Positions 1-40,769 of a stretch of 64,000 nucleotides of DNA are shown here, piece after piece (the first letter of the stretch is position 1; the number at the start of each line of letters is the position of its first letter). This DNA comes from Omnitrophica WOR_2 bacterium GWF2_43_52 (GTDB lineage: Bacteria > Omnitrophota > Gorgyraeia > Gygaellales > UBA12090), in contig MHGF01000003.1 in assembly GCA_001805445.1 (NCBI GenBank), positions 54,736 through 118,735 on the forward strand, in the 5' to 3' direction. Made by a program: the position numbers and the translations under genes. The notes beneath the pieces are model-generated. The model had not been told where the DNA came from. It searched no databases and saw nothing but the letters and a program-made list of their open reading frames with translations.

Positions 1-645
1 CTGGGGCTTATCGGCATTGCATTAACATATTCAAGGCCTACGTTACTCGCTATTTATGGGGTGTTTGTTTTCTTTTCGATCGCGCGAAAAAGCAAGGCCA
101 TGATTGCCTGCCTAATCATTTTCACTCTTGCTTCGCCTTTTTTGCTGCCGAAATCTGTGAAAACCTGGGCCAGGGATGTTGAGTATAATCCGCTAAGGTT
201 TATGTGTAATGACGATAGAATTGCCGTTTACCGCAATTCACTGCTGATGATTAAAGCGCATCCTCTCATCGGGGTGGGGGCGAATACCTTTATGAAAAGC
301 TACCGATTTTATAAGGAATATCCTGAATACCGTAATATCATAACCCTTGATGAGATGAAGGCGCATAATAATTTCCTGCATATGGCAGGAGAAATAGGTT
401 TGTTAGGGCTCTCAATTTTCTTCTGGTTTCTCTTTATTTTATTTAAGGAGTCTTGGAAGATATATCGTGGCTTAAAGGACCGCTATCTCAGTGCCGCTTC
501 ACTTTCGCTTGTAGCCTGTTTGATCGCCTTTTTGATTAACGGGCTTACCGAAAGCAGCTTGTATTATTCTGTGGTGAGTGTTTTATTCTGGTATATCGCG
601 GGGTTGAGCATATCCCTTAAAAAGATCAGCGATGAAAATCGCTAG
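1..645 (+). CDS. O-antigen ligase family protein (Wzy_C/WaaL-like), 5'-truncated at window edge
   Basis: The frame is open from nt 1, so the gene starts upstream of the window. It carries the Wzy_C signature 'AHNNFLHMAGEIGLLGL' (H-N-x-x-L...E-x-G-x-x-G) and hydrophobic TM segments. It lies directly upstream of a heptosyltransferase, as in waa clusters. Confidence 0.6.
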   Translation: MGLIGIALTYSRPTLLAIYGVFVFFSIARKSKAMIACLIIFTLASPFLLPKSVKTWARDVEYNPLRFMCNDDRIAVYRNSLLMIKAHPLIGVGANTFMKSYRFYKEYPEYRNIITLDEMKAHNNFLHMAGEIGLLGLSIFFWFLFILFKESWKIYRGLKDRYLSAASLSLVACLIAFLINGLTESSLYYSVVSVLFWYIAGLSISLKKISDENR

Positions 646-1600
646 GATTCTTGCCGTAAGAAATGATCGGTTTGGCGAGTTTCTCCTTACGCTTCCCGCG
701 TTGTATGCCTTAAAGGAGCATTATCCCGGAGCTGAATTAACTCTGGTTGTCAATGGCTCTGTAGCGGAATTAGCCGCGCGTATACCTTGTGTTGATGAGG
801 TAATCGTTTGGGAAAATAAAAAACACGGCTTCTTAGAGATAGGAAGGTTTGCCGCGCAGACAGCAGGAAAAAAATACGATCTCTGCGTTATCTTTAACCC
901 CAGCAAGGAATTAAATATAGTCAGTTTCCTCGCGGGGATTCCCGCACGGTGCGGCTATAACAGGAAATGGGGATTTTTATTAAACCGTACAACAGAAGAC
1001 AAAAAACATCTCGGTTCTATGCATGAAACCGAGTATAACCTGGAATTGCTCAAAACAATCGGAATAAGCACAGGTAGCCAACCTTTGAATTTTTTGCTAG
1101 ATATTAGAGATGATGATTTTAGCGATAAACGATTAGTTCATAGAGGGCTATCGAGCAAAAATTTCATTATCATTCATCCCTGGGCAAGTAATACGCAAAA
1201 AGAGTGGCCGCTTGATAAGTTTAAAGCGGTAGCTTTACAAATCATGAACACGCTTCATATACCTTGTGTACTTATCGGAGGCCCTGAAGAAGTAAAGAGG
1301 GCGGATCAATTCTGCAATGATATGCCCTTGATCAATTTGACAGGAAAAACCAGTTTAATTGAGTTAGCAGGTTTGTTGAAAAAGGGCAGAGTTCTTCTTA
1401 CGAATGACTCAGGCCCGATGCATTTGGCGGCAGCCGTGGGGATTCCGATAGTAGCTATTTTCCGTAAGCAGCCTCCTGCCATAAGCGCGAGGCGCTGGGG
1501 GCCGGTGGGAACGAGCAATAGCATTATAGAAAATGATGTTCTCGCCGAAATAAGTGTTGAGGAGGTCTTTCATGGGGTTAAAACAATCCTTAGTAGATAA
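632..1600 (+). CDS. ADP-heptose:LPS heptosyltransferase (glycosyltransferase family 9)
   Basis: GT9 hallmarks are present: N-terminal 'ILAVRNDRFGEFLLTLPAL' and C-terminal 'LLTNDSGPMHLAAAVGIP'. It is about 320 aa. It overlaps the upstream gene, which suggests translational coupling. Confidence 0.8.
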   Translation: MKIARILAVRNDRFGEFLLTLPALYALKEHYPGAELTLVVNGSVAELAARIPCVDEVIVWENKKHGFLEIGRFAAQTAGKKYDLCVIFNPSKELNIVSFLAGIPARCGYNRKWGFLLNRTTEDKKHLGSMHETEYNLELLKTIGISTGSQPLNFLLDIRDDDFSDKRLVHRGLSSKNFIIIHPWASNTQKEWPLDKFKAVALQIMNTLHIPCVLIGGPEEVKRADQFCNDMPLINLTGKTSLIELAGLLKKGRVLLTNDSGPMHLAAAVGIPIVAIFRKQPPAISARRWGPVGTSNSIIENDVLAEISVEEVFHGVKTILSR

Positions 1601-3008
1601 GCAGGCCTACGCGGTAATTCTCGCCGGAGGGGTAGGCAGCCGATTTTGGCCTTTTAGCCGGGAACTTGAGCCAAAGCAATTTATTACTATCGTAGGCAAG
1701 GAGAGCCTCCTGCAAAATACTATCAGGCGCTTGTCTGGCCTGATCAGCGCGAAAAAGGTATATATTATTACCAACAAAAGCTACTTTTACGAGCTTAAAA
1801 AGCAGATTGAAAAATTCAAGATTCCGGAAAATAATATACTCCTTGAGCCGGAAGGGAAAAATACCGCGCCTGCAATTGGCCTAAGCGCGAGGCTTATTGA
1901 AAAACAGAACAAAGATGCTACCCTTATAGTTTTGCCTGCTGACCATTATATCAAAGATATAGCGCGTTTTAAAAGTGCCTTGCGCCAGGCTATTCTATGC
2001 GCGCAAGATAATTTCCTGGTAACCCTAGGCATAAGGCCGGGAAAACCATCAACGGGGTATGGGTACATTAAAATAGGTCACCAGTCACCAGTCACCAGTC
2101 ACCAGTATAGATATTATACGGTAGAAAAATTCCTAGAAAAACCGAGTTTAAAGAATGCGAAGCGATATAGCGCGGATAAACGCTATTTTTGGAATAGCGG
2201 AATGTTTGTCTGGAAAGTTTCGGTGTTCATGGAGGAACTCAAACGCTCTTTACCTGATTTATACTCCCAGCTATCCTTGATACAAACCCACGAGGATATC
2301 TCGAAGATTTGGCCAGAAATAAAACCTATATCTGTGGATTATGGCATTATGGAACATTCAAAACGGATCGCGCTCATCCCTGCTGATTTTGGTTGGAGTG
2401 ACCTGGGAAGTTGGGATTCTCTGCAGGAGTTACTCCCAAAAGATAAAAAAGGGAATGTAATACAATCGGACTCAGTTGATTGTGGTAGCCAGGGCCTTTG
2501 CGTTTTTACTAAATCCAATAGGCTTATCGCGACCATAGGGCTTAAAGATGTGATTATCGCGGATACCCCTGACGCGCTTCTTGTATGCAATAAACATAAA
2601 GCCCAGGAAGTAAAGAACATCGTCGAGTATCTCAAGAAACGTAACCGAAAAGAACACTTAGTGCATCTGACTGATAAGCGCCCGTGGGGATCGTTCACCG
2701 TTTTACAAAGCTCTGATGGGTTTAAAATTAAGATAGTAGAGATTGAGCCGAAGAAACGCCTGAGCCTTCAAAGCCACCAAAAACGCGCTGAACACTGGGT
2801 AGTAGTATCAGGACGCGCTAAGGTTACCCGAGGTAATACGGTGAGATTTGTTGAGAGTAATGAAAGTATCTACATTCCAATAGGAGTCAAGCACCGCCTG
2901 GAAAATCCCGATACAGTGCCGCTTAAAATTGTGGAAGTGCAAACCGGCAGCTACCTGGAAGAAGATGACATCCAGCGCTATGAAGATGATTTCAACCTAC
3001 GCGGTTGA
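1572..3008 (+). CDS. Bifunctional mannose-1-phosphate guanylyltransferase / mannose-6-phosphate isomerase (NTP-transferase + cupin), ManC/CpsB-like
   Basis: The N-terminal 'AVILAGGVGSRFWPFS' is a sugar-nucleotidyltransferase G-loop. The C-terminal 'HLTDKRPWGSF...EHWVVVSGRAKVT' is a cupin of type II PMI. An ATG at 1572 is preceded by the strong SD 'GAGGAGG'. The ORF track's GTG at 1554 is a less likely start. The gene contains a 7-nt tandem repeat at 2077-2104. Confidence 0.8.
   Translation: MGLKQSLVDKQAYAVILAGGVGSRFWPFSRELEPKQFITIVGKESLLQNTIRRLSGLISAKKVYIITNKSYFYELKKQIEKFKIPENNILLEPEGKNTAPAIGLSARLIEKQNKDATLIVLPADHYIKDIARFKSALRQAILCAQDNFLVTLGIRPGKPSTGYGYIKIGHQSPVTSHQYRYYTVEKFLEKPSLKNAKRYSADKRYFWNSGMFVWKVSVFMEELKRSLPDLYSQLSLIQTHEDISKIWPEIKPISVDYGIMEHSKRIALIPADFGWSDLGSWDSLQELLPKDKKGNVIQSDSVDCGSQGLCVFTKSNRLIATIGLKDVIIADTPDALLVCNKHKAQEVKNIVEYLKKRNRKEHLVHLTDKRPWGSFTVLQSSDGFKIKIVEIEPKKRLSLQSHQKRAEHWVVVSGRAKVTRGNTVRFVESNESIYIPIGVKHRLENPDTVPLKIVEVQTGSYLEEDDIQRYEDDFNLRG
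2077..2104 (+). repeat. Perfect heptanucleotide tandem repeat (GTCACCA)x4 inside the ManC-like CDS
   Basis: I read 'gtcacca gtcacca gtcacca gtcacca g' directly from the sequence. The unit length is not a multiple of 3. It encodes 'HQSPVTSHQ'. Confidence 0.9.
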
Positions 3009-3019
3009 ATGAGGTTTCA

Positions 3020-4087
3020 ATGAATATTTTGATTGTGAATCCTTTCGGCATCGGGGATTGTTTATTTGCTACCCCATTACTGCATAGCCTCAAAGACGCC
3101 TTTCCTGATACTAGAATAGGTTTTCTTTGCAATAAACGCACCGCGCCATTGCTTAAGAAGAATCCTTTTATTGACCAGCTATTTATCTATGAAAGAGATG
3201 AGTTTAAGCGCCTTCAGTCTGTTTCCTGGATTACGTGGTTGAGGGAATTTAGCAGGTTTATCAAAAGTATACAAAAGGCAAAGTTTGACCTGGCAATCGA
3301 TTTGTCTTTATCTACACCGTTTGGCTTTTTCTTATTTTTAGCCGGCATAAAGAAAAGGATTGGATATAACTACAAAAACCGGGGGATGTATTTAACCCGA
3401 TCAATGCAGCTCCGTAGCTACGATAAAAAACATATGGTAGAGTATTATAATGGCATCTTAGATTTGCTCAAAGTAAAGCCTCACTATAGCTCCATGGAAC
3501 TTTATCTGAATGAAGAAGATGTGGCTTCCGCGCAAAATCTGTTACGGGAGAAAAATCCTGATAACCTATCGCCGATTATCGTAATAGCTCCGGGAGGCGG
3601 GGCGAGCTGGGGAAAAGAGGCGTATCTAAAATATTGGCCCGCGGGTAATTTTAAAGTCTTAATCGACAAAATCCTTGAAAAATATAACCCTGCGATTATA
3701 ATAGTAGGGGATTTAACTGATAGCACTCTTTTAGGTGCAGGTGATAGCAAGGTTATTAACTGCACTGGTAAACTTACATTGGCGCAAACTGCCGCGCTCA
3801 TACAGAAAGCGGATTTGTTCATTGGTAATGACGGAGGACTTTTACACATGGCGGTAGCCTTAGGCATAAGAACCATTTCTTTCTTTGGCCCGGTTGATCC
3901 GCTGGTGTATGGGCCCTATCCACAGGACCCTCATCGCCATAGTATCCTGAGGAAAACTCTGGAATGCAGCCCCTGCTATCGTAGTTTTCGCCTTAGCTCC
4001 TGCAAAAATGACAGAGAGTGTTTGGTAAAGATTAACGTGGAGGATGCGATAAACGCTATAGATAACGTATTAAGCCATAAGGAGTAA
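3020..4087 (+). CDS. ADP-heptose:LPS heptosyltransferase (GT9), second paralog
   Basis: It carries 'MNILIVNPFGIGDCLFATPLL' and 'GNDGGLLHMAVALGI', which are GT9 motifs. An ATG at 3020 follows a GAGG SD. The ORF-track start at 3005 is a TTG. Confidence 0.8.
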   Translation: MNILIVNPFGIGDCLFATPLLHSLKDAFPDTRIGFLCNKRTAPLLKKNPFIDQLFIYERDEFKRLQSVSWITWLREFSRFIKSIQKAKFDLAIDLSLSTPFGFFLFLAGIKKRIGYNYKNRGMYLTRSMQLRSYDKKHMVEYYNGILDLLKVKPHYSSMELYLNEEDVASAQNLLREKNPDNLSPIIVIAPGGGASWGKEAYLKYWPAGNFKVLIDKILEKYNPAIIIVGDLTDSTLLGAGDSKVINCTGKLTLAQTAALIQKADLFIGNDGGLLHMAVALGIRTISFFGPVDPLVYGPYPQDPHRHSILRKTLECSPCYRSFRLSSCKNDRECLVKINVEDAINAIDNVLSHKE

Positions 4088-10106: not shown

Positions 10107-12062
10107 ATGTGCGGTATTTCAGGACTCTACTCCTTAAACGGGCGTTCGATAAGATTCGATGTTTTGCGTAAGATGAGCCAATTGTTACTACATCGCGGCC
10201 CTGACGGAGAAGGATACTTTTTGTCGGATACCCGTCTTAAGAAATTTGACGTTCATTATAATTCCGCGGATAGTTTCAATGTCAATGGGCTAAAGCCTGA
10301 TCTCGGATTGGCTCATAGGCGCCTCAGCATTATCGATTTAAGCGTTATCGCCCGCCAACCTATGTCTAATGATGATGGAAGCCTGTGGATTGTATTCAAC
10401 GGTGAGATTTATAATTATATTGAATTGAGGCGCGAATTGTCTACGTTGGGCTGTAATTTTAAAAGTGCTTCTGACACTGAAATAATTTTGCGTTCATATG
10501 AATTATTTGGCATGGGTTGCGTTAAGCGGTTTAACGGTATGTGGGCCTTTGCTATATGGGATGCGCGTAAAAACATACTTTTTTGCTCTAGAGATAGGTT
10601 TGGCGTAAAACCATTTTATTATTTTTATAATGATGGCCTATTCGCATTTGCTTCTGAAATAAAATCCCTCCTGCTGATTCAGCGGGCATATCCTAACGAG
10701 CGAGGAATTTATAATTACCTAGTTAAATCTTTCGGTTTTCTGGATGTCACAGAAGATACTCTTTTTGCGGATATTTATCAATTGCAACCTGCCCATAATC
10801 TGGTTATCGGCGCAGATGGGATAAAAATAGAAAAGTACTGGGATATCTATAGTGCTATTGATAAACCTTTACTTAGCCAGGGGCAGGCCATAGATGCATT
10901 CGGCTCCCTTTTTATCGATGCCATAAAAATAAGGCTGCGTAGTGATGTTAAAGTGGCAGGAGCCTTAAGCGGCGGGATTGATTCTTCGTCCATAACCTGC
11001 GTGATTAAAAAACGCCTCAAAGTAAATAACTATGAAACATATTCCGCGTGTTTTGATAACCCGCACTATGATGAACGTGAATATATCGCTGAGGTAACGC
11101 GAGATACCGGATATAAATCAAATTATGTTTTCCCTGACGAAGCATCCTTCTTTGATATTTTAAAGCGTCAAATATGGCTTCAGGATGAACCATTTAACGC
11201 GATGTGGGTGCATAGCCAGTGGTTTGTTTACCAGAAAGCAGCCGCTAATGGGGTAAAAGTTTTTATTAATGGTCATGGCAGCGATGAATCCTTGGGGGGA
11301 TATTATCCACACTTTGATGCCTTATGGGCTGATTTATTGCGGCGAGGCAGAATATTACTCTTGCTACATGAAATTTCTTTATTCTCTAAGCATAATCCCA
11401 GCCGATCCGTCAATTTGACGAACATCTTGTATTACATAGCGAATTATTATACCCCTGGCTTTATTAAAAGTTTCTTCTCAAAAACGCCAAATTTCCTTAA
11501 TTCTGATTTCGCGCAGAGAAATAGCAAAAAAAAATATCTTTATGAAAATCATTTTAATGATTTCTTAAACCGCTATCTTTATGAGTCATTGTTTATTTCT
11601 CCGATCAGAGGTATGTTGCATTTTGATGACCGTAACAGTATGGCGTTTTCTATAGAATCACGCACGCCTTTTCTTGACTATCGCCTTATAGAACTGGCAT
11701 TTAGCCTGCCTGGGACGTATAAGATTAAAAATGGTTATAATAAATATCTTCTAAGAGAAACAATGAAGGGGATCATCCCGGAGCGAATACAGGCGCGTTT
11801 TACTAAAAAAGGGTTTTCTTCTGGCGCGCCACAATGGTTACGGCAGAACAAAAAGTATTTGTATGATTTATTTAAACCGCAAACATGCCTTGCTGGCAAG
11901 TATCTAAAAAGTCCGGAAGTTATTAAAGAAATTGACCGCTATTGTGACGGAGAAACAAATATACATGAGCAATTAGGGTCTTGGGTAACATTGGAATTAT
12001 GGCTAAGAAAGTTTATTGACGGTAACGGCGGAATAAAAACTGAGGATATATTCCTCAATTGA
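10107..12062 (+). CDS. Asparagine synthetase (glutamine-hydrolysing) family amidotransferase, paralog 1; probable sugar amidotransferase (PseA/WbpS-like role)
   Basis: The N-terminal 'MCGISGL' holds the Ntn Cys2 nucleophile. 'LAHRRLSIIDL' and 'IVFNGEIYNY' follow. The synthetase-domain PP-loop is 'AGALSGGIDSS'. The size is 651 aa. Confidence 0.85.
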   Translation: MCGISGLYSLNGRSIRFDVLRKMSQLLLHRGPDGEGYFLSDTRLKKFDVHYNSADSFNVNGLKPDLGLAHRRLSIIDLSVIARQPMSNDDGSLWIVFNGEIYNYIELRRELSTLGCNFKSASDTEIILRSYELFGMGCVKRFNGMWAFAIWDARKNILFCSRDRFGVKPFYYFYNDGLFAFASEIKSLLLIQRAYPNERGIYNYLVKSFGFLDVTEDTLFADIYQLQPAHNLVIGADGIKIEKYWDIYSAIDKPLLSQGQAIDAFGSLFIDAIKIRLRSDVKVAGALSGGIDSSSITCVIKKRLKVNNYETYSACFDNPHYDEREYIAEVTRDTGYKSNYVFPDEASFFDILKRQIWLQDEPFNAMWVHSQWFVYQKAAANGVKVFINGHGSDESLGGYYPHFDALWADLLRRGRILLLLHEISLFSKHNPSRSVNLTNILYYIANYYTPGFIKSFFSKTPNFLNSDFAQRNSKKKYLYENHFNDFLNRYLYESLFISPIRGMLHFDDRNSMAFSIESRTPFLDYRLIELAFSLPGTYKIKNGYNKYLLRETMKGIIPERIQARFTKKGFSSGAPQWLRQNKKYLYDLFKPQTCLAGKYLKSPEVIKEIDRYCDGETNIHEQLGSWVTLELWLRKFIDGNGGIKTEDIFLN

Positions 12063-12077
12063 CAAAGGAGATGATAC

Positions 12078-13067
12078 ATGAAGTATCTGGTAGTTGGCTC
12101 TGGATCGATCGGAAAAAGGCGCATTGGCATTTTAAATGATTTGGGCATAACATCTATTGACATATGCGATAAATCTGAAACACGGATGGATGATGTTTGT
12201 CAGAAATACAGGGTCGAAGGCAGATATACGGATTATGCTGTGGCTTTGGCAAAAAAACCCGATGTTGTCATTATCTGCACGCCGCCGGTATTTCATATCT
12301 CTATTGCTAAGGCCGCTGTAGAAGCAGGGGCAGGCTTAATGATAGAAAAACCGCTGGCTCATAACTTAGATGGCGTAGATAGCCTGATTAAACTTATTCA
12401 GAAAAAGAAAGCGATTGCTGGCGTTGCTTATACTCTGCGTTTTCATAAAGGCGTTAACCTATTGCGGAATATAGTTGAGCAGAAAATTATAGGAAAGGTT
12501 TATTCTGTGCGCGCGGAGTGCGGCCAATACCTCCCAGATTGGCATCCGTGGGAAGATTATCGAAATTGGTATATGTCAAAAAAAAACGAAGGAGGAGGAG
12601 CGATTTTAGATATTAGCCATGAAATTGATTATGTAAGGTGGCTTCTTGGAGATGCTAAGGAAGTAGGGTGCTTTTACGGAACTATTAGCGATTTACAGAT
12701 GGATGCAGATGATGTGGCTGAAATACTATTGAGGTTTAAAAGCGGGGCCATTAGTTCTATACATCTTGACCTTTTGCAGAGAGATTACAGAAGAAATTGC
12801 GAAATTATTGGTGAAAAAGGGACTGTTTTATGGGACTATACGACAAAACAAATAAAGGTTTTTACAAAGGAAAAAGGTTGCTGGGAGACCATAGAATATA
12901 AAGAGGAACGCTCAGATATGTTCGTCGAAGAAACCAAACATTTTATTAAGTGTTTTGAAAAGAAAGCGCAGATTATGGTTTCTGTTGAAGACGCCGCTAA
13001 AACATTAGCTATTGCAGTTTCGGCGAAAGAGTCGAGCGATTCGAAAAAAATTGTGATACTTCCCTGA
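12078..13067 (+). CDS. Gfo/Idh/MocA-family NAD(P)-dependent oxidoreductase
   Basis: The N-terminal Rossmann 'MKYLVVGSGSIGKRR' is present. 'IEKPLA' matches the conserved EKP motif. The size is 329 aa. A strong SD 'AAAGGAG' precedes the start. Confidence 0.75.
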   Translation: MKYLVVGSGSIGKRRIGILNDLGITSIDICDKSETRMDDVCQKYRVEGRYTDYAVALAKKPDVVIICTPPVFHISIAKAAVEAGAGLMIEKPLAHNLDGVDSLIKLIQKKKAIAGVAYTLRFHKGVNLLRNIVEQKIIGKVYSVRAECGQYLPDWHPWEDYRNWYMSKKNEGGGAILDISHEIDYVRWLLGDAKEVGCFYGTISDLQMDADDVAEILLRFKSGAISSIHLDLLQRDYRRNCEIIGEKGTVLWDYTTKQIKVFTKEKGCWETIEYKEERSDMFVEETKHFIKCFEKKAQIMVSVEDAAKTLAIAVSAKESSDSKKIVILP

Positions 13068-37017: not shown

Positions 37018-39672
37018 ATGAAAATTTCGTTAATTTATCCATTATTATCCAGAGCCAGAAGCTTACTTGACGAGAATAAACAATATTGGCCGCCTCTGGG
37101 TTTGGCCTATATCGCTGCGGTACTCGAAAAAAAAGGCCATAGTGTGCAGATTTTAGATAGAGACCTTATTTTACGCAGGAGCAGTTTCGACTTTGACAAG
37201 ACTGATACGATAACCTTAGGGTTGATTAAGGATTTTGGCGCGCAGATTGTCGGTTTTAGCGCGACCACGCCCAATATCTCGGATATAAACTTTTTTTCGT
37301 CAAAAATCAAGAGCATGCTTCCGGGAATGCTCATGGTAATTGGCGGGCCGCATTGTTCCGGTGAACCTGTTGAAACATTAGAAATATGCAAGAATATAGA
37401 TGTCCTTGTCAGAGGTGAAGGAGAGATCACTATGCAAGAAATAGCCAGCGGAGCCCTTATTGACGGTATTGCTGGATTGACATACAGGAGTACGCGCCAA
37501 GGAATCGTTTCTAACATTGACAGGCCGTTGATCGAGGCACTCGATGAGTTACCTTTTCCTGCAAGGCATTTGCTTGATATGGATTATTATACAAGGCCAA
37601 GCAGATTTACTAGCAGAAACCATTCTTTCAGAACGACGCATATTTTTACTGCTCGAGGATGTCCTTATAACTGTCATTACTGCGCAGGGCCTTTAATGGG
37701 GAGGATGACAGTAAGGTATCATTCTGCGCATAGGTTAATCGACGAGATCAAAGAGCTTATCAGTAAATATTCAGTAGAGGCTATTTATTTCGCTGATGAT
37801 ATGTTCTTAAGTAACAAAAAACGCGCCATGGAAATAATCGACTTATTTATTACAAACAGATTGCACAAGAAAATTTCTTGGATCGCACAAATAAACCCAA
37901 ACGTGGCGGATAAAGAGCTCTTATCAGCCATGAAAGAGGCCGGATGCATCCACGTCGAATACGGTTTTGAATCTGGTTCCCAACGAGTTCTAGGGCTTAT
38001 GAATAAAAGGACAAATGTTTTACGCAATAAGGAAGTCGTTAAACTAACGCGAAAGGTAGGCCTTCATTTCCAAGGAAATTTTATCGTTGGATATCCTGGA
38101 GAAACAGAAGACGACTTTGCCGAAACTGTCTCCTTTATAAGAGAAACACGCCCTAATATGGTCTCGATGAATTTATTTATGCCATTGCCGGGAACAGATA
38201 TATACAGAAAACTCAAGCAGAGCGGATGTCTTAATACAAATTGGGATGATTTTGGCAATCCAGACGCGCCTTACATAAATTACGCCGATATGCCGAAATC
38301 TCGTTTCGAGGAGCTTTATTTTCGCGCCAAATTAAAAGTGGTCCTACCAATAAATCTGTTTAATTTTATTAAAAGTAACCTATTGCACCCGCTTAGGCTT
38401 ATCTATGTGTTAATAACCCAATTTAAAGGTGTGTTAAAACGCGCTTTTAAAGCGGCGGCAGAACTCAAGAGAATAGGCAAGAAACATAATCCGCAACCGA
38501 TAGTCCTGCTGGTAGCGTACCACTCTATCACTTATCCGATTATGGAATCCCAGGGGATTTCGTACATTAAAAAATTATCGCACTACGGAATTCAATATTT
38601 TATTCTGACGTACGAAACTCGGGATACTCTTGCTCGATATAAAATAGCAGATACTGACCTCAAGCTGCAAACGAACTGGCATCATCTGTATTATCATAAA
38701 AACCCCAGATTGCTTGCTACGCTCTTTGATGTTATCTGTGGGATGTGGTATGTTTTCTTTATTGTACGCAAAAGCAGGATTAATATAGTGCATGCCAGAG
38801 GTCTAGTGCCAGCGGTTATTGCCTTTTTACCTGCAAAGATAATGGGAGTTAAATTCTTTTTTGATACGAGGGGGCTGCTTGCAGACAAATATGTAGGTGG
38901 GGGATTGCTAAAAAATAAAAGTTTAACGTATAGAGTGATGCGTTTCGCCGAAAATTTTTTAATACAACAATCTGATTCCTTTACTGTCGAAACTATTAGG
39001 CATGCGCAAGTAATCCGTAATAGCAACGTTAGTCTTTCTTCAAAGATGGAAGTGATTCCTTCTTGCGTAGATTTGGATAAATTTAAATGCGATACTTCAA
39101 AACCAGACAGCGGAAAATTTAAGTTAGCCTATATAGGGAAATGCGGAAGCTGGTATATGCTTGATGAGATGTTTGACTTTTTCCGTGTTCTCTTAAAAAT
39201 CTCTTCACAGGCTGTATTTATGCTTGCTACTGATCGAGATCCGAATGAAATCTTTCGCGCTGCGATGCGAAAAGGTATTCCTGAAGACAGCATAGTGGTA
39301 AAAAACCTTTCGCATGCCGAGGTAGCCGGTTTTCTCTCGCGCGCGAGCGCGGGGATATTTTTTATCAACCCGTACAAACGTTATAATTCTTCTCCTACAA
39401 AATATGGAGAATATCTTGCCTGTGGCCTTCCGGTGGTAATCAACAGCGGTATTGGAGATACTGAAGAGATAACTACAAAAATGAATATTGGCGTTATAAT
39501 AAATACTTTTTCAGAAGCATCATATGAATCTGCGGCTAGAAAGCTTCTTGATTTGTGTAAAGACGCCACAAGCGTTCAGACACGCTGTAAGCAGGCTGCC
39601 GAAGAACTTCTTTCACTGAAAAAAGGCGCTGAAAAATATCGCGATATTTTTCAGCACTTGCTAAAGATTTGA
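37018..39672 (+). CDS. Fusion protein: B12-binding radical SAM (class B) N-terminal half + GT4 glycosyltransferase C-terminal half
   Basis: The N-terminal half has 'ISLIYPLLSRARS...WPPLGLAYIAAVL' (B12 domain), 'GEGEITM' and the radical SAM 'CPYNCHYC'. The C-terminal ~380 aa are a GT-B/GT4 with 'FINPYKRYNSSPTKYGEYLACGLPVVINS' in the E-x7-E region. The total is 884 aa. Confidence 0.75.
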   Translation: MKISLIYPLLSRARSLLDENKQYWPPLGLAYIAAVLEKKGHSVQILDRDLILRRSSFDFDKTDTITLGLIKDFGAQIVGFSATTPNISDINFFSSKIKSMLPGMLMVIGGPHCSGEPVETLEICKNIDVLVRGEGEITMQEIASGALIDGIAGLTYRSTRQGIVSNIDRPLIEALDELPFPARHLLDMDYYTRPSRFTSRNHSFRTTHIFTARGCPYNCHYCAGPLMGRMTVRYHSAHRLIDEIKELISKYSVEAIYFADDMFLSNKKRAMEIIDLFITNRLHKKISWIAQINPNVADKELLSAMKEAGCIHVEYGFESGSQRVLGLMNKRTNVLRNKEVVKLTRKVGLHFQGNFIVGYPGETEDDFAETVSFIRETRPNMVSMNLFMPLPGTDIYRKLKQSGCLNTNWDDFGNPDAPYINYADMPKSRFEELYFRAKLKVVLPINLFNFIKSNLLHPLRLIYVLITQFKGVLKRAFKAAAELKRIGKKHNPQPIVLLVAYHSITYPIMESQGISYIKKLSHYGIQYFILTYETRDTLARYKIADTDLKLQTNWHHLYYHKNPRLLATLFDVICGMWYVFFIVRKSRINIVHARGLVPAVIAFLPAKIMGVKFFFDTRGLLADKYVGGGLLKNKSLTYRVMRFAENFLIQQSDSFTVETIRHAQVIRNSNVSLSSKMEVIPSCVDLDKFKCDTSKPDSGKFKLAYIGKCGSWYMLDEMFDFFRVLLKISSQAVFMLATDRDPNEIFRAAMRKGIPEDSIVVKNLSHAEVAGFLSRASAGIFFINPYKRYNSSPTKYGEYLACGLPVVINSGIGDTEEITTKMNIGVIINTFSEASYESAARKLLDLCKDATSVQTRCKQAAEELLSLKKGAEKYRDIFQHLLKI

Positions 39673-40769
39673 AAATCCTTTTTTGGGTGCCTTACCCATC
39701 AGAAGGCGCAAGCAACAGGTACAGGGTAGAACAATACTTGCCTTTCTTAAAAAAAGAGGCGATTAAATTTTCACTCCATCCCTTTTGGACAAAATCCGCA
39801 TATAAAGTTTTATATAGGAATGGATATTACTTCAGAAAGTTTTTCTTCTTTTTTGCGGGTATTCTTTTCAGAACGATTGATGTTTTCAGTATATTCCGTT
39901 ATGATGTGGTTTTTATTCATCGAGAGGCGTGCCCTGTCGGATCAGCTTTTTTCGAATCGGCAGCGTTTTTTTTAGGGAGAGAGGTCATTTTTGATTTTGA
40001 TGATGCAATATTTTTACCTTCAAGCAGCCGTTGCAACAATTTTGTCGAAAAGTTTAAAAACCCGGGGAAAGTCGCCACTATCATTAAGAAAAGTAAATAC
40101 GTAATATGTGGAAATTCATTTTTAGCTGATTTTTCATTGCGATACAATCCGTCGGTTGTTATTATTCCTACGCCAATAGATACGACAAAATATTCTCCTA
40201 TGATAGCCACTGACAACAGGCCAACGATCATTGGTTGGATGGGCAGCGCAACGACTCTTGATTTTCTCGATCCGATGAAGAATGTGTTTACAGTTTTATC
40301 CAGCCTTTTTAATGATGTTGAGTTTAAAATAATCGGGGGGGCATTTTTGATTCCCGGACTTTCAAGAGTAAGGAGCAAATCGTGGTCATTCGCTGACGAA
40401 ATAGATGACCTTAGAAGTATGGATATCGGAATTATGCCTATGCCTGATAACGATTGGACCAGAGGAAAGTGTGGATTCAAGGCAATTCTCTATATGAGCA
40501 TGGGAATTCCCTGCGTTTGTTCTCCGGTAGGCATGAACAAAGAGATAATCATAAATGGTAGCAATGGATTCCTCGCAACTACTCAGGAAGATTGGGTAGA
40601 AAAACTCTCGCTTCTTATAAAAGACTCTGCACTTCGCAGAAAACTTGGTAATGCAGGAAGAAAGACGGTTGAGGAAAGATATTCATTAAAAGCTAATGCT
40701 CAAAAATATTTGGAGGTTTTAAAAAACTGCAAAAAGGTTAATTGCAAACGTTACGGCAGGCATAGCTAA
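39669..40769 (+). CDS. Glycosyltransferase family 4-like (GT-B)
   Basis: The size is 366 aa. 'CGFKAILYMSMGIPCVCSPVGMNKEII' is the GT-B C-domain donor-binding region. The N-terminal 'KILFWVPYPSEGASNRYR' is present. A G7 tract lies at 40335-40341. Confidence 0.65.
   Translation: MKILFWVPYPSEGASNRYRVEQYLPFLKKEAIKFSLHPFWTKSAYKVLYRNGYYFRKFFFFFAGILFRTIDVFSIFRYDVVFIHREACPVGSAFFESAAFFLGREVIFDFDDAIFLPSSSRCNNFVEKFKNPGKVATIIKKSKYVICGNSFLADFSLRYNPSVVIIPTPIDTTKYSPMIATDNRPTIIGWMGSATTLDFLDPMKNVFTVLSSLFNDVEFKIIGGAFLIPGLSRVRSKSWSFADEIDDLRSMDIGIMPMPDNDWTRGKCGFKAILYMSMGIPCVCSPVGMNKEIIINGSNGFLATTQEDWVEKLSLLIKDSALRRKLGNAGRKTVEERYSLKANAQKYLEVLKNCKKVNCKRYGRHS

Follow-up and report, generated by a model that had tools for sequence, protein, structure and literature searches.

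A (GTCACCA)4 heptanucleotide array in manC as a candidate slipped-strand ON/OFF switch in a Candidatus Omnitrophota bacterium

Is a perfect tandem array of a seven-nucleotide unit in the middle of a coding gene a harmless scar of replication, or does it turn that gene on and off? The question is raised by manC, the gene for a predicted bifunctional enzyme of GDP-mannose synthesis, in a 64,000-nucleotide stretch of contig MHGF01000003.1 from Omnitrophica WOR_2 bacterium GWF2_43_52 (the whole stretch is referred to as the window below), where four units of GTCACCA follow one another within the reading frame. An earlier note on this DNA had interpreted the array as a site of phase variation, and this interpretation is supported by a natural allele with three units and by orthologous arrays that have been turned over at the same site. 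Judging from the sequences at hand, the (GTCACCA)4 tract is probably a slipped-strand ON/OFF switch of the contingency type acting on manC of this Candidatus Omnitrophota bacterium. The features needed for the argument are as follows.

1572..3008, + strand: manC, bifunctional mannose-1-phosphate guanylyltransferase / mannose-6-phosphate isomerase (PMI), 478 aa in the ON frame (open reading frame (ORF), Pfam and homologs)
2055..2069, + strand: GYGYI codons, the strand before the hairpin and conserved 5' anchor of the variable loop (homolog alignment, loop extraction)
2077..2106, + strand: heptanucleotide array (GTCACCA)x4 + GT, in which +/-1 unit shifts the frame (Tandem Repeats Finder (TRF), simulations, 3-unit allele in locus L101)
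2108..2110, + strand: TAG stop of the +1-unit (or -2-unit) frame, directly after the array; the n=5 and n=2 products end ...SPV* (in-silico variants, frame translations)
2122..2124, + strand: TAG stop of the -1-unit (or +2-unit) frame; 181-aa product ...GHQSPVTSIDIIR*, with natural counterpart P0122 (in-silico variants)
2130..2144, + strand: FLEKP codons, conserved 3' anchor of the variable loop (homolog alignment, loop extraction)

Direct reading of window positions 2077-2104 gives GTCACCA four times without interruption, followed by GT at 2105-2106, and TRF describes the array with a period of 7, 4.3 copies, 100% matches and a score of 60, the top score in the window. It is the sole perfect repeat of at least three units with a unit length of 4-9 nt in the 64 kb, and the longest perfect tandem run for periods 4-12 comprises 23 matched bases, a length reached in none of 300 order-2 Markov simulations of the window (maximum 15). 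The repeat is real and far beyond chance, in agreement with the earlier note, which had described four perfect, uninterrupted units in a coding region and had considered a perfect 28-nt repeat improbable in 64 kb. With its four units, the array also lies above the lower bound of three units applied to heptanucleotides in a survey of Haemophilus influenzae (PMC2651432).

The consequences of unit gain and loss were derived by rebuilding manC in silico with 0-8 GTCACCA units. Full-length ManC is obtained with n=1, 4 and 7, and with every other number translation ends at TAG 2108-2110 or TAG 2122-2124, giving products of 174-188 aa. Both alternative frames reach a TAG within 6 codons, and the truncated products retain only half of the nucleotidyltransferase domain and nothing of the β-helix or the isomerase domain. 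The earlier note had placed the repeat at about codon 168 within the nucleotidyltransferase domain, which is correct (the array starts at codon 169 from the ATG), and its expectation that the enzyme is cut short by a frameshift when a single unit is gained or lost is borne out both by these variants and by the natural 3-unit allele.

This allele was found when the products predicted for 1, 2, 3, 5, 6 and 7 units were looked up by exact sequence among ~15 billion proteins, where the 181-aa product of the 3-unit form is present as P0122. The contig that encodes it (L101; ENA ERZ27254739, MEGAHIT k141, 27.9 kb) carries three units and a ManC cut at 181 aa, and its alignment to the window spans 2864 columns, of which 2857/2857 aligned bases are identical and the remainder is a single 7-nt gap corresponding to one GTCACCA unit. 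The unit number is thus the only difference in an essentially clonal background, and the gene is predicted to be inactivated by it. The exact ManC protein of the window is found on 21 groundwater-metagenome contigs (ENA, JGI, Logan and NCBI GCA_001804385.1), where it is named ManC in Omnitrophica metagenome-assembled genomes (MAGs), and the eleven other loci of the species for which DNA was fetched all have four units; ten of them are 99.95-100% identical to the window over the shared region (≤6 kb) and one is 99.5% identical. Polymorphism in repeat number between near-identical genomes is therefore present, resting on one variant contig among ~23, and the change from four to three units is the only one seen among natural alleles. 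A search for the flanks of the array separated by a gap of 6-36 nt in one metagenome-contig collection returned no match, not even the 4-unit allele, and that collection consequently appears to be without this organism.

Other disrupted forms of manC occur in the same 90% protein cluster as the window ManC, and assembly problems are possible for both of them. Locus L102 (ENA ERZ28563792 scaffold_7536) is 100% identical to window positions 207-2079 and 2171-4062 and lacks the segment in between:

2080..2170, + strand: 91-nt segment missing from L102, a putative second natural null allele; the deletion starts 3 nt into the array (alignment)

The deletion splits ManC into ORFs of 171 aa and 268 aa, and may represent a genuine second null allele or an error of scaffolding. 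In locus L091 (ENA ERZ4903137), from a 99.5%-identical strain, 10 of 19 mismatches lie within 70 nt of the PMI cupin domain (window 2749-2817), and ManC is truncated at 408 aa and followed by a 55-aa ORF while the array still has four units; a recombination tract, a pseudogene or an assembly chimera would each account for this. Together, the two disrupted alleles suggest that manC is dispensable and repeatedly lost.

In the DNA fetched for orthologous loci, heptamer arrays occupy the same loop in eight lineages, with units that differ between lineages. Besides the window, they are listed below with the protein identity to the window ManC.

L092 / P0002, 83% identity: GCCGCAG + (GTCACAG)x3
L100 / P0001, 85% identity: (GTCAACG)x3 + decayed unit
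L093 / P0010, 70% identity: GCCGCAG GCTGCAG GCCGCAG GCCGCAG (x4, 1 mismatch)
L095-L099 / P0064, 64% identity: (CGACTAT)x4.7, perfect
L103 / P0037, about 69% identity: (AAAATCA)x4, perfect
L104 / P0132, about 70% identity: (CAGCCGT)x4, perfect
L105 / P0088, 64% identity: degenerate array

Arrays are thus present in both of the closest orthologs, P0001 and P0002, for which similarity was the sole criterion of choice. Two short-loop Omnitrophota orthologs that served as controls (L001 and L002) have no repeat; they were the only Omnitrophota among the matches listed from a ManC-alignment search of genome contigs, which returned mostly non-Omnitrophota ManC. Since the units are uniform within a lineage and different between lineages, the arrays appear to undergo concerted evolution, which requires ongoing gain and loss of units, and two thirds of such events shift the frame. 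Stepwise growth of an array from one to four units also traverses OFF states. The earlier note had named two observations that would speak against phase variation, an invariant repeat number and an HQSPVTS peptide kept in orthologs without the DNA repeat. The number is not invariant, given three units in L101 and four elsewhere, and for the peptide the opposite is found, as orthologs keep the heptamer array and not the peptide.

Very fast turnover of units is evident between L103 and L104, whose manC genes are both 1440 nt long. They differ at 44 positions, 35 of which fall in gene positions 501-559 and only 9 in the other 1381 nt. The divergent segment consists of the array and 25 nt on its 3' side, and contains unrelated perfect arrays, (AAAATCA)4 in L103:1501-1560 and (CAGCCGT)4 in L104:585-644. 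In the P0037 90% cluster, among proteins 99% identical outside the loop, both loop types are combined with both N-terminal haplotypes (EPFGVTQHVD and ERSGETKQAE) and with both C-terminal ones (TTISARV and ATVPARV), a four-gamete pattern that indicates recombination; the extra substitutions 3' of the array also point to it. Among proteins 83-99% identical outside the loop there are at least five different loop arrays, and the same K-rich loop is also found in backbones that are only 68% identical. From these comparisons the arrays appear to behave as quickly replaced, recombining alleles. A single AAAATCA copy borders the CAGCCGT array on its 5' side, and it is conceivable that a boundary unit took over the array by slippage.

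How can an enzyme accommodate such changes in its nucleotidyltransferase domain? In the homolog alignment, the peptide specified by the array, G-HQSPVTS-HQ-Y, is flanked by the invariant motifs GYGYI and FLEKP, and the segment between these motifs is the most variable part of the protein among 120 homologs, with lengths of 13-48 aa and main classes of 14 and 20 aa. An AlphaFold2 model places residues 169-179 in a β-hairpin turn between strands 165-168 and 180-188, and the loop exceeds that of the guanylyltransferase (GMP) of T. maritima (2X5S) by 5 aa. Because the loop is variable in length, forms a hairpin turn and is longer than its counterpart in 2X5S, the array site is likely to take almost any in-frame peptide.

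A loop that is merely permissive should not favor frame-shifting periods over in-frame ones, and this was explored with the DNA of 191 distinct manC loops, drawn from every locus fetched and mostly from other phyla, in which a 4-unit window score of at least 0.9 was taken as a strong array. Strong arrays were present at period 7 only, in 7 of the 191 loops, and none were found at periods 4, 5, 6, 8, 9 or 10. Six of the seven belong to this Omnitrophota clade. The seventh, L147 (Ga0184628_10025654), is an unrelated high-GC ManC of the FREKP type that carries AGGGTTC x3 + GGGGTTC in the corresponding hairpin loop (~110-145 nt upstream of the 2649-2681 match) and represents an independent origin of a heptamer array at the manC loop. 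L147 and the broad control set came from a metagenome search with the degenerate pattern YFWNSGMF(V/I)WK, which is not clade-specific. At the protein level, 67 distinct loops of 18-20 aa contain 140 lag-7 identities, compared with 71.6±7.8 in within-loop shuffles (z = 8.7, a value that overstates independence, the loops being related). No lag other than 7 is enriched in the 67 long loops, and the short loops are without a lag-7 signal. As harmless in-frame periods are absent, a merely permissive loop is disfavored.

The combined observations suggest a model for the operation of the switch. With four units, manC is in frame, and the array encodes the end of a β-hairpin on the protein surface (GHQSPVTSHQ), a position open to nearly every peptide. 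The loss or gain of one unit by replication slippage leads the frame into a TAG 1 to 6 codons on, and with the resulting protein of ~181 aa GDP-mannose would no longer be made for the surrounding glycan of the lipopolysaccharide (LPS)/O-antigen type, until a further slippage event restored the frame. Switching would be frequent and reversible, the OFF state would alter the cell surface, and the variation may be selected, for example, against phages or other surface-recognizing enemies. A more far-reaching version holds that the manC loop is a long-lived, selected contingency site throughout the clade, with a switchable 4-unit array whose unit is rewritten faster than the gene itself, and with two arrays segregating in one recombining population; we regard this as possible, while stopping somewhat short of calling it probable.

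Several observations weigh against a working switch. The array has only four units, and about four are found in every ON allele of every lineage. In the systems studied so far, switching rates climb steeply with unit number, and the copy number of classical contingency loci varies widely between strains; with four units the switching rate may be low or modest. A changed unit number is seen in only one of ~23 contigs of the species, and the look-up among ~15 billion proteins returned none of the 1-, 2-, 5-, 6- or 7-unit products, so that +1, ±2 and ±3 alleles are missing. The ±1-unit products of five ortholog lineages were likewise absent on exact look-up, and a check of ten ortholog clusters for truncated proteins revealed none that stops at the loop, the shorter sequences being contig-end fragments or long-read indel fragments; in both cases the lineages are thinly sampled. 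The orthologs for which DNA was fetched were in part chosen for peptide periodicity, which introduces a selection bias. Finally, an enzyme that consumes GDP-mannose, such as GMD or a mannosyltransferase, was not specifically identified beside manC.

The most serious competitor to a switch is a tolerated slippage scar without switch function, in which arrays turn over by mutation pressure and the 3-unit allele is an ordinary loss-of-function allele, drifting or mildly selected. The great freedom of loop length and sequence among homologs is in keeping with this, as are the shortness of the arrays, always of ~4 units, the rarity of OFF alleles (one slippage allele in ~23 contigs and none in other lineages) and the occurrence of other, irreversible manC null alleles, which indicate that plain gene loss happens. 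A permissive loop should nevertheless hold periods 3, 6 and 9 at least as often as 7, and only period 7 is seen. Perfect arrays persist down to 64% protein identity, re-homogenized with new units, for which frequent slippage is needed. Purifying selection alone should favor interrupting point mutations in so tolerant a loop. Even a scar would imply a hypermutable ON/OFF site, differing from a switch only in the question of adaptiveness. On balance, we consider the scar unlikely, yet clearly the foremost of the alternatives.

Much less probable is a hypervariable loop cassette maintained by recombination and by diversifying or balancing selection on the loop, as peptide or as DNA, with the frame-shifting being incidental. 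Such a cassette would agree with the concentration of the L103/L104 differences in the loop region (35/44), with the four-gamete evidence and with the spread of the K-rich loop over distant backbones. ManC is cytoplasmic, however, and what might impose diversifying selection on its hairpin tip is not obvious; moreover, recombination moves arrays but leaves their perfect or near-perfect 7-nt x4 form unexplained, together with the 3-unit allele in a clonal background, so that it is compatible with slippage rather than an alternative to it. An assembly or sequencing error as the source of the repeat or of the 3-unit variant can be considered very improbable. The 3-unit allele does come from a single contig, which ends 740 nt past the array, but the 4-unit array is identical in independent ENA, JGI, Logan and NCBI assemblies made by different assemblers, an array of 28-30 nt fits well within both the k-mer (141) and the reads and cannot be collapsed by assembly, Illumina errors do not typically remove exactly one unit and leave 2857 other bases unchanged, and arrays recur in many unrelated ortholog assemblies. 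Three further candidates were considered and rejected: an array of DNA-binding sites or an RNA structure, as the unit sequence is not conserved; a variable region of the type made by diversity-generating retroelements, the segment being too short and without an A-specific pattern; and a harmless in-frame peptide repeat, as the period is 7 nt rather than 3, 6 or 9.

The proposed slipped-strand switch depends on what manC encodes and on where it is found. The ORF extends from ATG 1572 to TGA 3008 (478 aa), or from an alternative GTG start at 1554 (484 aa), and the protein matches the Pfam families NTP_transferase (2.3e-48), ManC_GMP_beta-helix (9e-17) and MannoseP_isomer, a cupin (1.3e-43), all above the cut-offs. 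Its nearest solved structure is T. maritima GMP 2X5S (E 1.7e-74, aligned over residues 14-354), and its best homologs are proteins from Candidatus Omnitrophota MAGs, 64-85% identical and named ManC by their source. The gene fits the type II PMI-GMP enzymes (ManC/CpsB), with a predicted nucleotidyltransferase, a β-helix linker and a C-terminal cupin PMI at full length. Two genes of the GT9 family flank it:

632..1600, + strand: upstream GT9 (heptosyltransferase-like) gene, 29-nt overlap with the manC start (ORF, Pfam)
3021..4087, + strand: downstream GT9 gene, 355 or 360 aa; starts at ATG 3021, or at TTG 3005, overlapping the manC stop (ORF, Pfam)

The 29-nt overlap places the upstream GT9 gene and manC in the same operon, and expression of the downstream GT9 gene could be affected by polarity when manC is OFF. 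In addition to these two genes, the neighbors include Wzy_C (O-antigen-ligase-like), a DegT aminotransferase, GT2, a GmhB-like phosphatase, GT28, NeuB, a NeuC-like epimerase, a CMP-sugar transferase, a Kdo transferase, a Wzx flippase, GT4 and methyltransferases, and the surroundings of manC are best described as a predicted surface-glycan cluster of the LPS-core/O-antigen type. That the switch would alter the supply of GDP-mannose to this glycan is suggested by the domain content of ManC and by the gene neighborhood. The 64-kb window contains no second manC that could back up the OFF state.

The glycan operon has a second structural polymorphism. In loci L084 and L089, a 225-nt in-frame deletion (window 480-704) between imperfect 12-nt direct repeats TG[G/C]CTTAAAGGA fuses the Wzy_C ORF with the upstream GT9 ORF into a 651-aa product, with nine mismatches clustered just upstream. 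In some orthologous loci, a gene of the ParE toxin family and a small gene, likely a toxin-antitoxin pair, lie between manC and the downstream GT9 gene (L093:3028-3610, L094:2221-2803 and L104:1637-2219); this insertion is absent from the window.

Among characterized systems, the closest mechanistic analogue of the manC array is neuO of E. coli K1, and the closest functional analogue is manA/wbeL of V. cholerae O1. The capsule O-acetyltransferase gene neuO, carried by the CUS-3 prophage, contains a heptanucleotide repeat (5'-AAGACTC-3') in its coding region, is ON when the unit count is divisible by 3, has 3-53 units and is OFF in 65.6% of 64 complete genomes (PMC13001214). In both genes a 7-nt unit lies in a surface-glycan ORF, one residue class modulo 3 gives the full-length protein, the in-frame array yields a heptad peptide that the enzyme tolerates, and OFF genotypes are found in natural genomes. 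The neuO array, in contrast, is 5'-terminal, long, variable, built from one unit sequence and often OFF, whereas that of manC lies mid-gene in a hairpin loop (codon 169), has ~4 units in all ON alleles, is rarely OFF and has a unit that differs between close lineages. ManC also makes a nucleotide-sugar precursor instead of modifying a polymer, and its host belongs to a free-living or episymbiotic groundwater phylum. The manC array would work like that of neuO, and is neither its homologue nor a member of a neuO-type variable-number tandem repeat.

In V. cholerae O1, poly-A tracts (A8/A9) in manA and wbeL, genes of the mannose/perosamine O-antigen pathway, give rise to phage-resistant variants (Seed et al. 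2012, PMC3441752). As proposed for manC, simple repeats there shift the frame in the pathway from mannose through GDP-mannose to perosamine, null products end a few codons past the tract, and it is the supply of precursor that is switched, not a transferase; such variants are known from natural isolates of V. cholerae, where a phage specific for the O antigen selects for them. The tracts are homopolymers and not heptamers, the switched enzyme is the type I PMI ManA, and manC is not phase-variable in that organism. The phenotype and reversibility of manA have moreover been shown experimentally, whereas for the Omnitrophota manC they are predicted from sequence. The lic, lgt and hmw loci of Haemophilus influenzae and Neisseria, among others, likewise depend on slipped-strand mispairing at short tandem repeats, located in genes for LPS and surface structures, and the H. 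influenzae survey mentioned above reports an intragenic (AATTTTG)14 tract with frameshift in hmw1a (PMC2651432). Those bacteria are pathogens adapted to a host and carry numerous loci of this kind in each genome, with long arrays, whereas here a single locus with a short array is found in 64 kb from an uncultivated environmental phylum.

The manC array represents, on the slipped-strand reading, a known mechanism, the contingency locus, in a new gene and phylum and with unusually fast unit turnover. No paper in the literature searched combines Omnitrophota or Omnitrophica with phase variation. To our knowledge, nearly all known cases of simple-repeat phase variation come from host-adapted pathogens and commensals. 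Should the manC loop be a selected contingency site of the whole clade, simple-repeat phase variation would be documented for the first time in a candidate phylum that is uncultivated and not host-associated, and the surface glycans of these nanobacteria would have to be under strong fluctuating selection, imposed by phages or by the recognition of host or prey. The presence of ON and OFF alleles in metagenomes and the retention of the site by the clade suggest bet-hedging of surface glycans in subsurface Omnitrophota, plausibly against phages. The 7-nt length polymorphism is a cheap marker for following ON/OFF dynamics in existing read archives, and the fast concerted replacement of units, unusual for contingency loci, offers a natural system for studies of repeat birth and maintenance.

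The window contains few other repetitive elements. The only other simple repeats are two A9 runs, at 11526-11534 in an asparagine-synthase-like gene and at 12578-12586 in a GFO/IDH/MocA oxidoreductase gene, both of the manC glycan cluster; two such runs are close to the number expected by chance for a sequence of 40% GC (a rough estimate), and V. cholerae genes do switch by tracts of this length. A weak TRF repeat with a 21-nt period, 2.3 copies and 74% matches is found at 40598-40643, inside the ORF 39669-40769.

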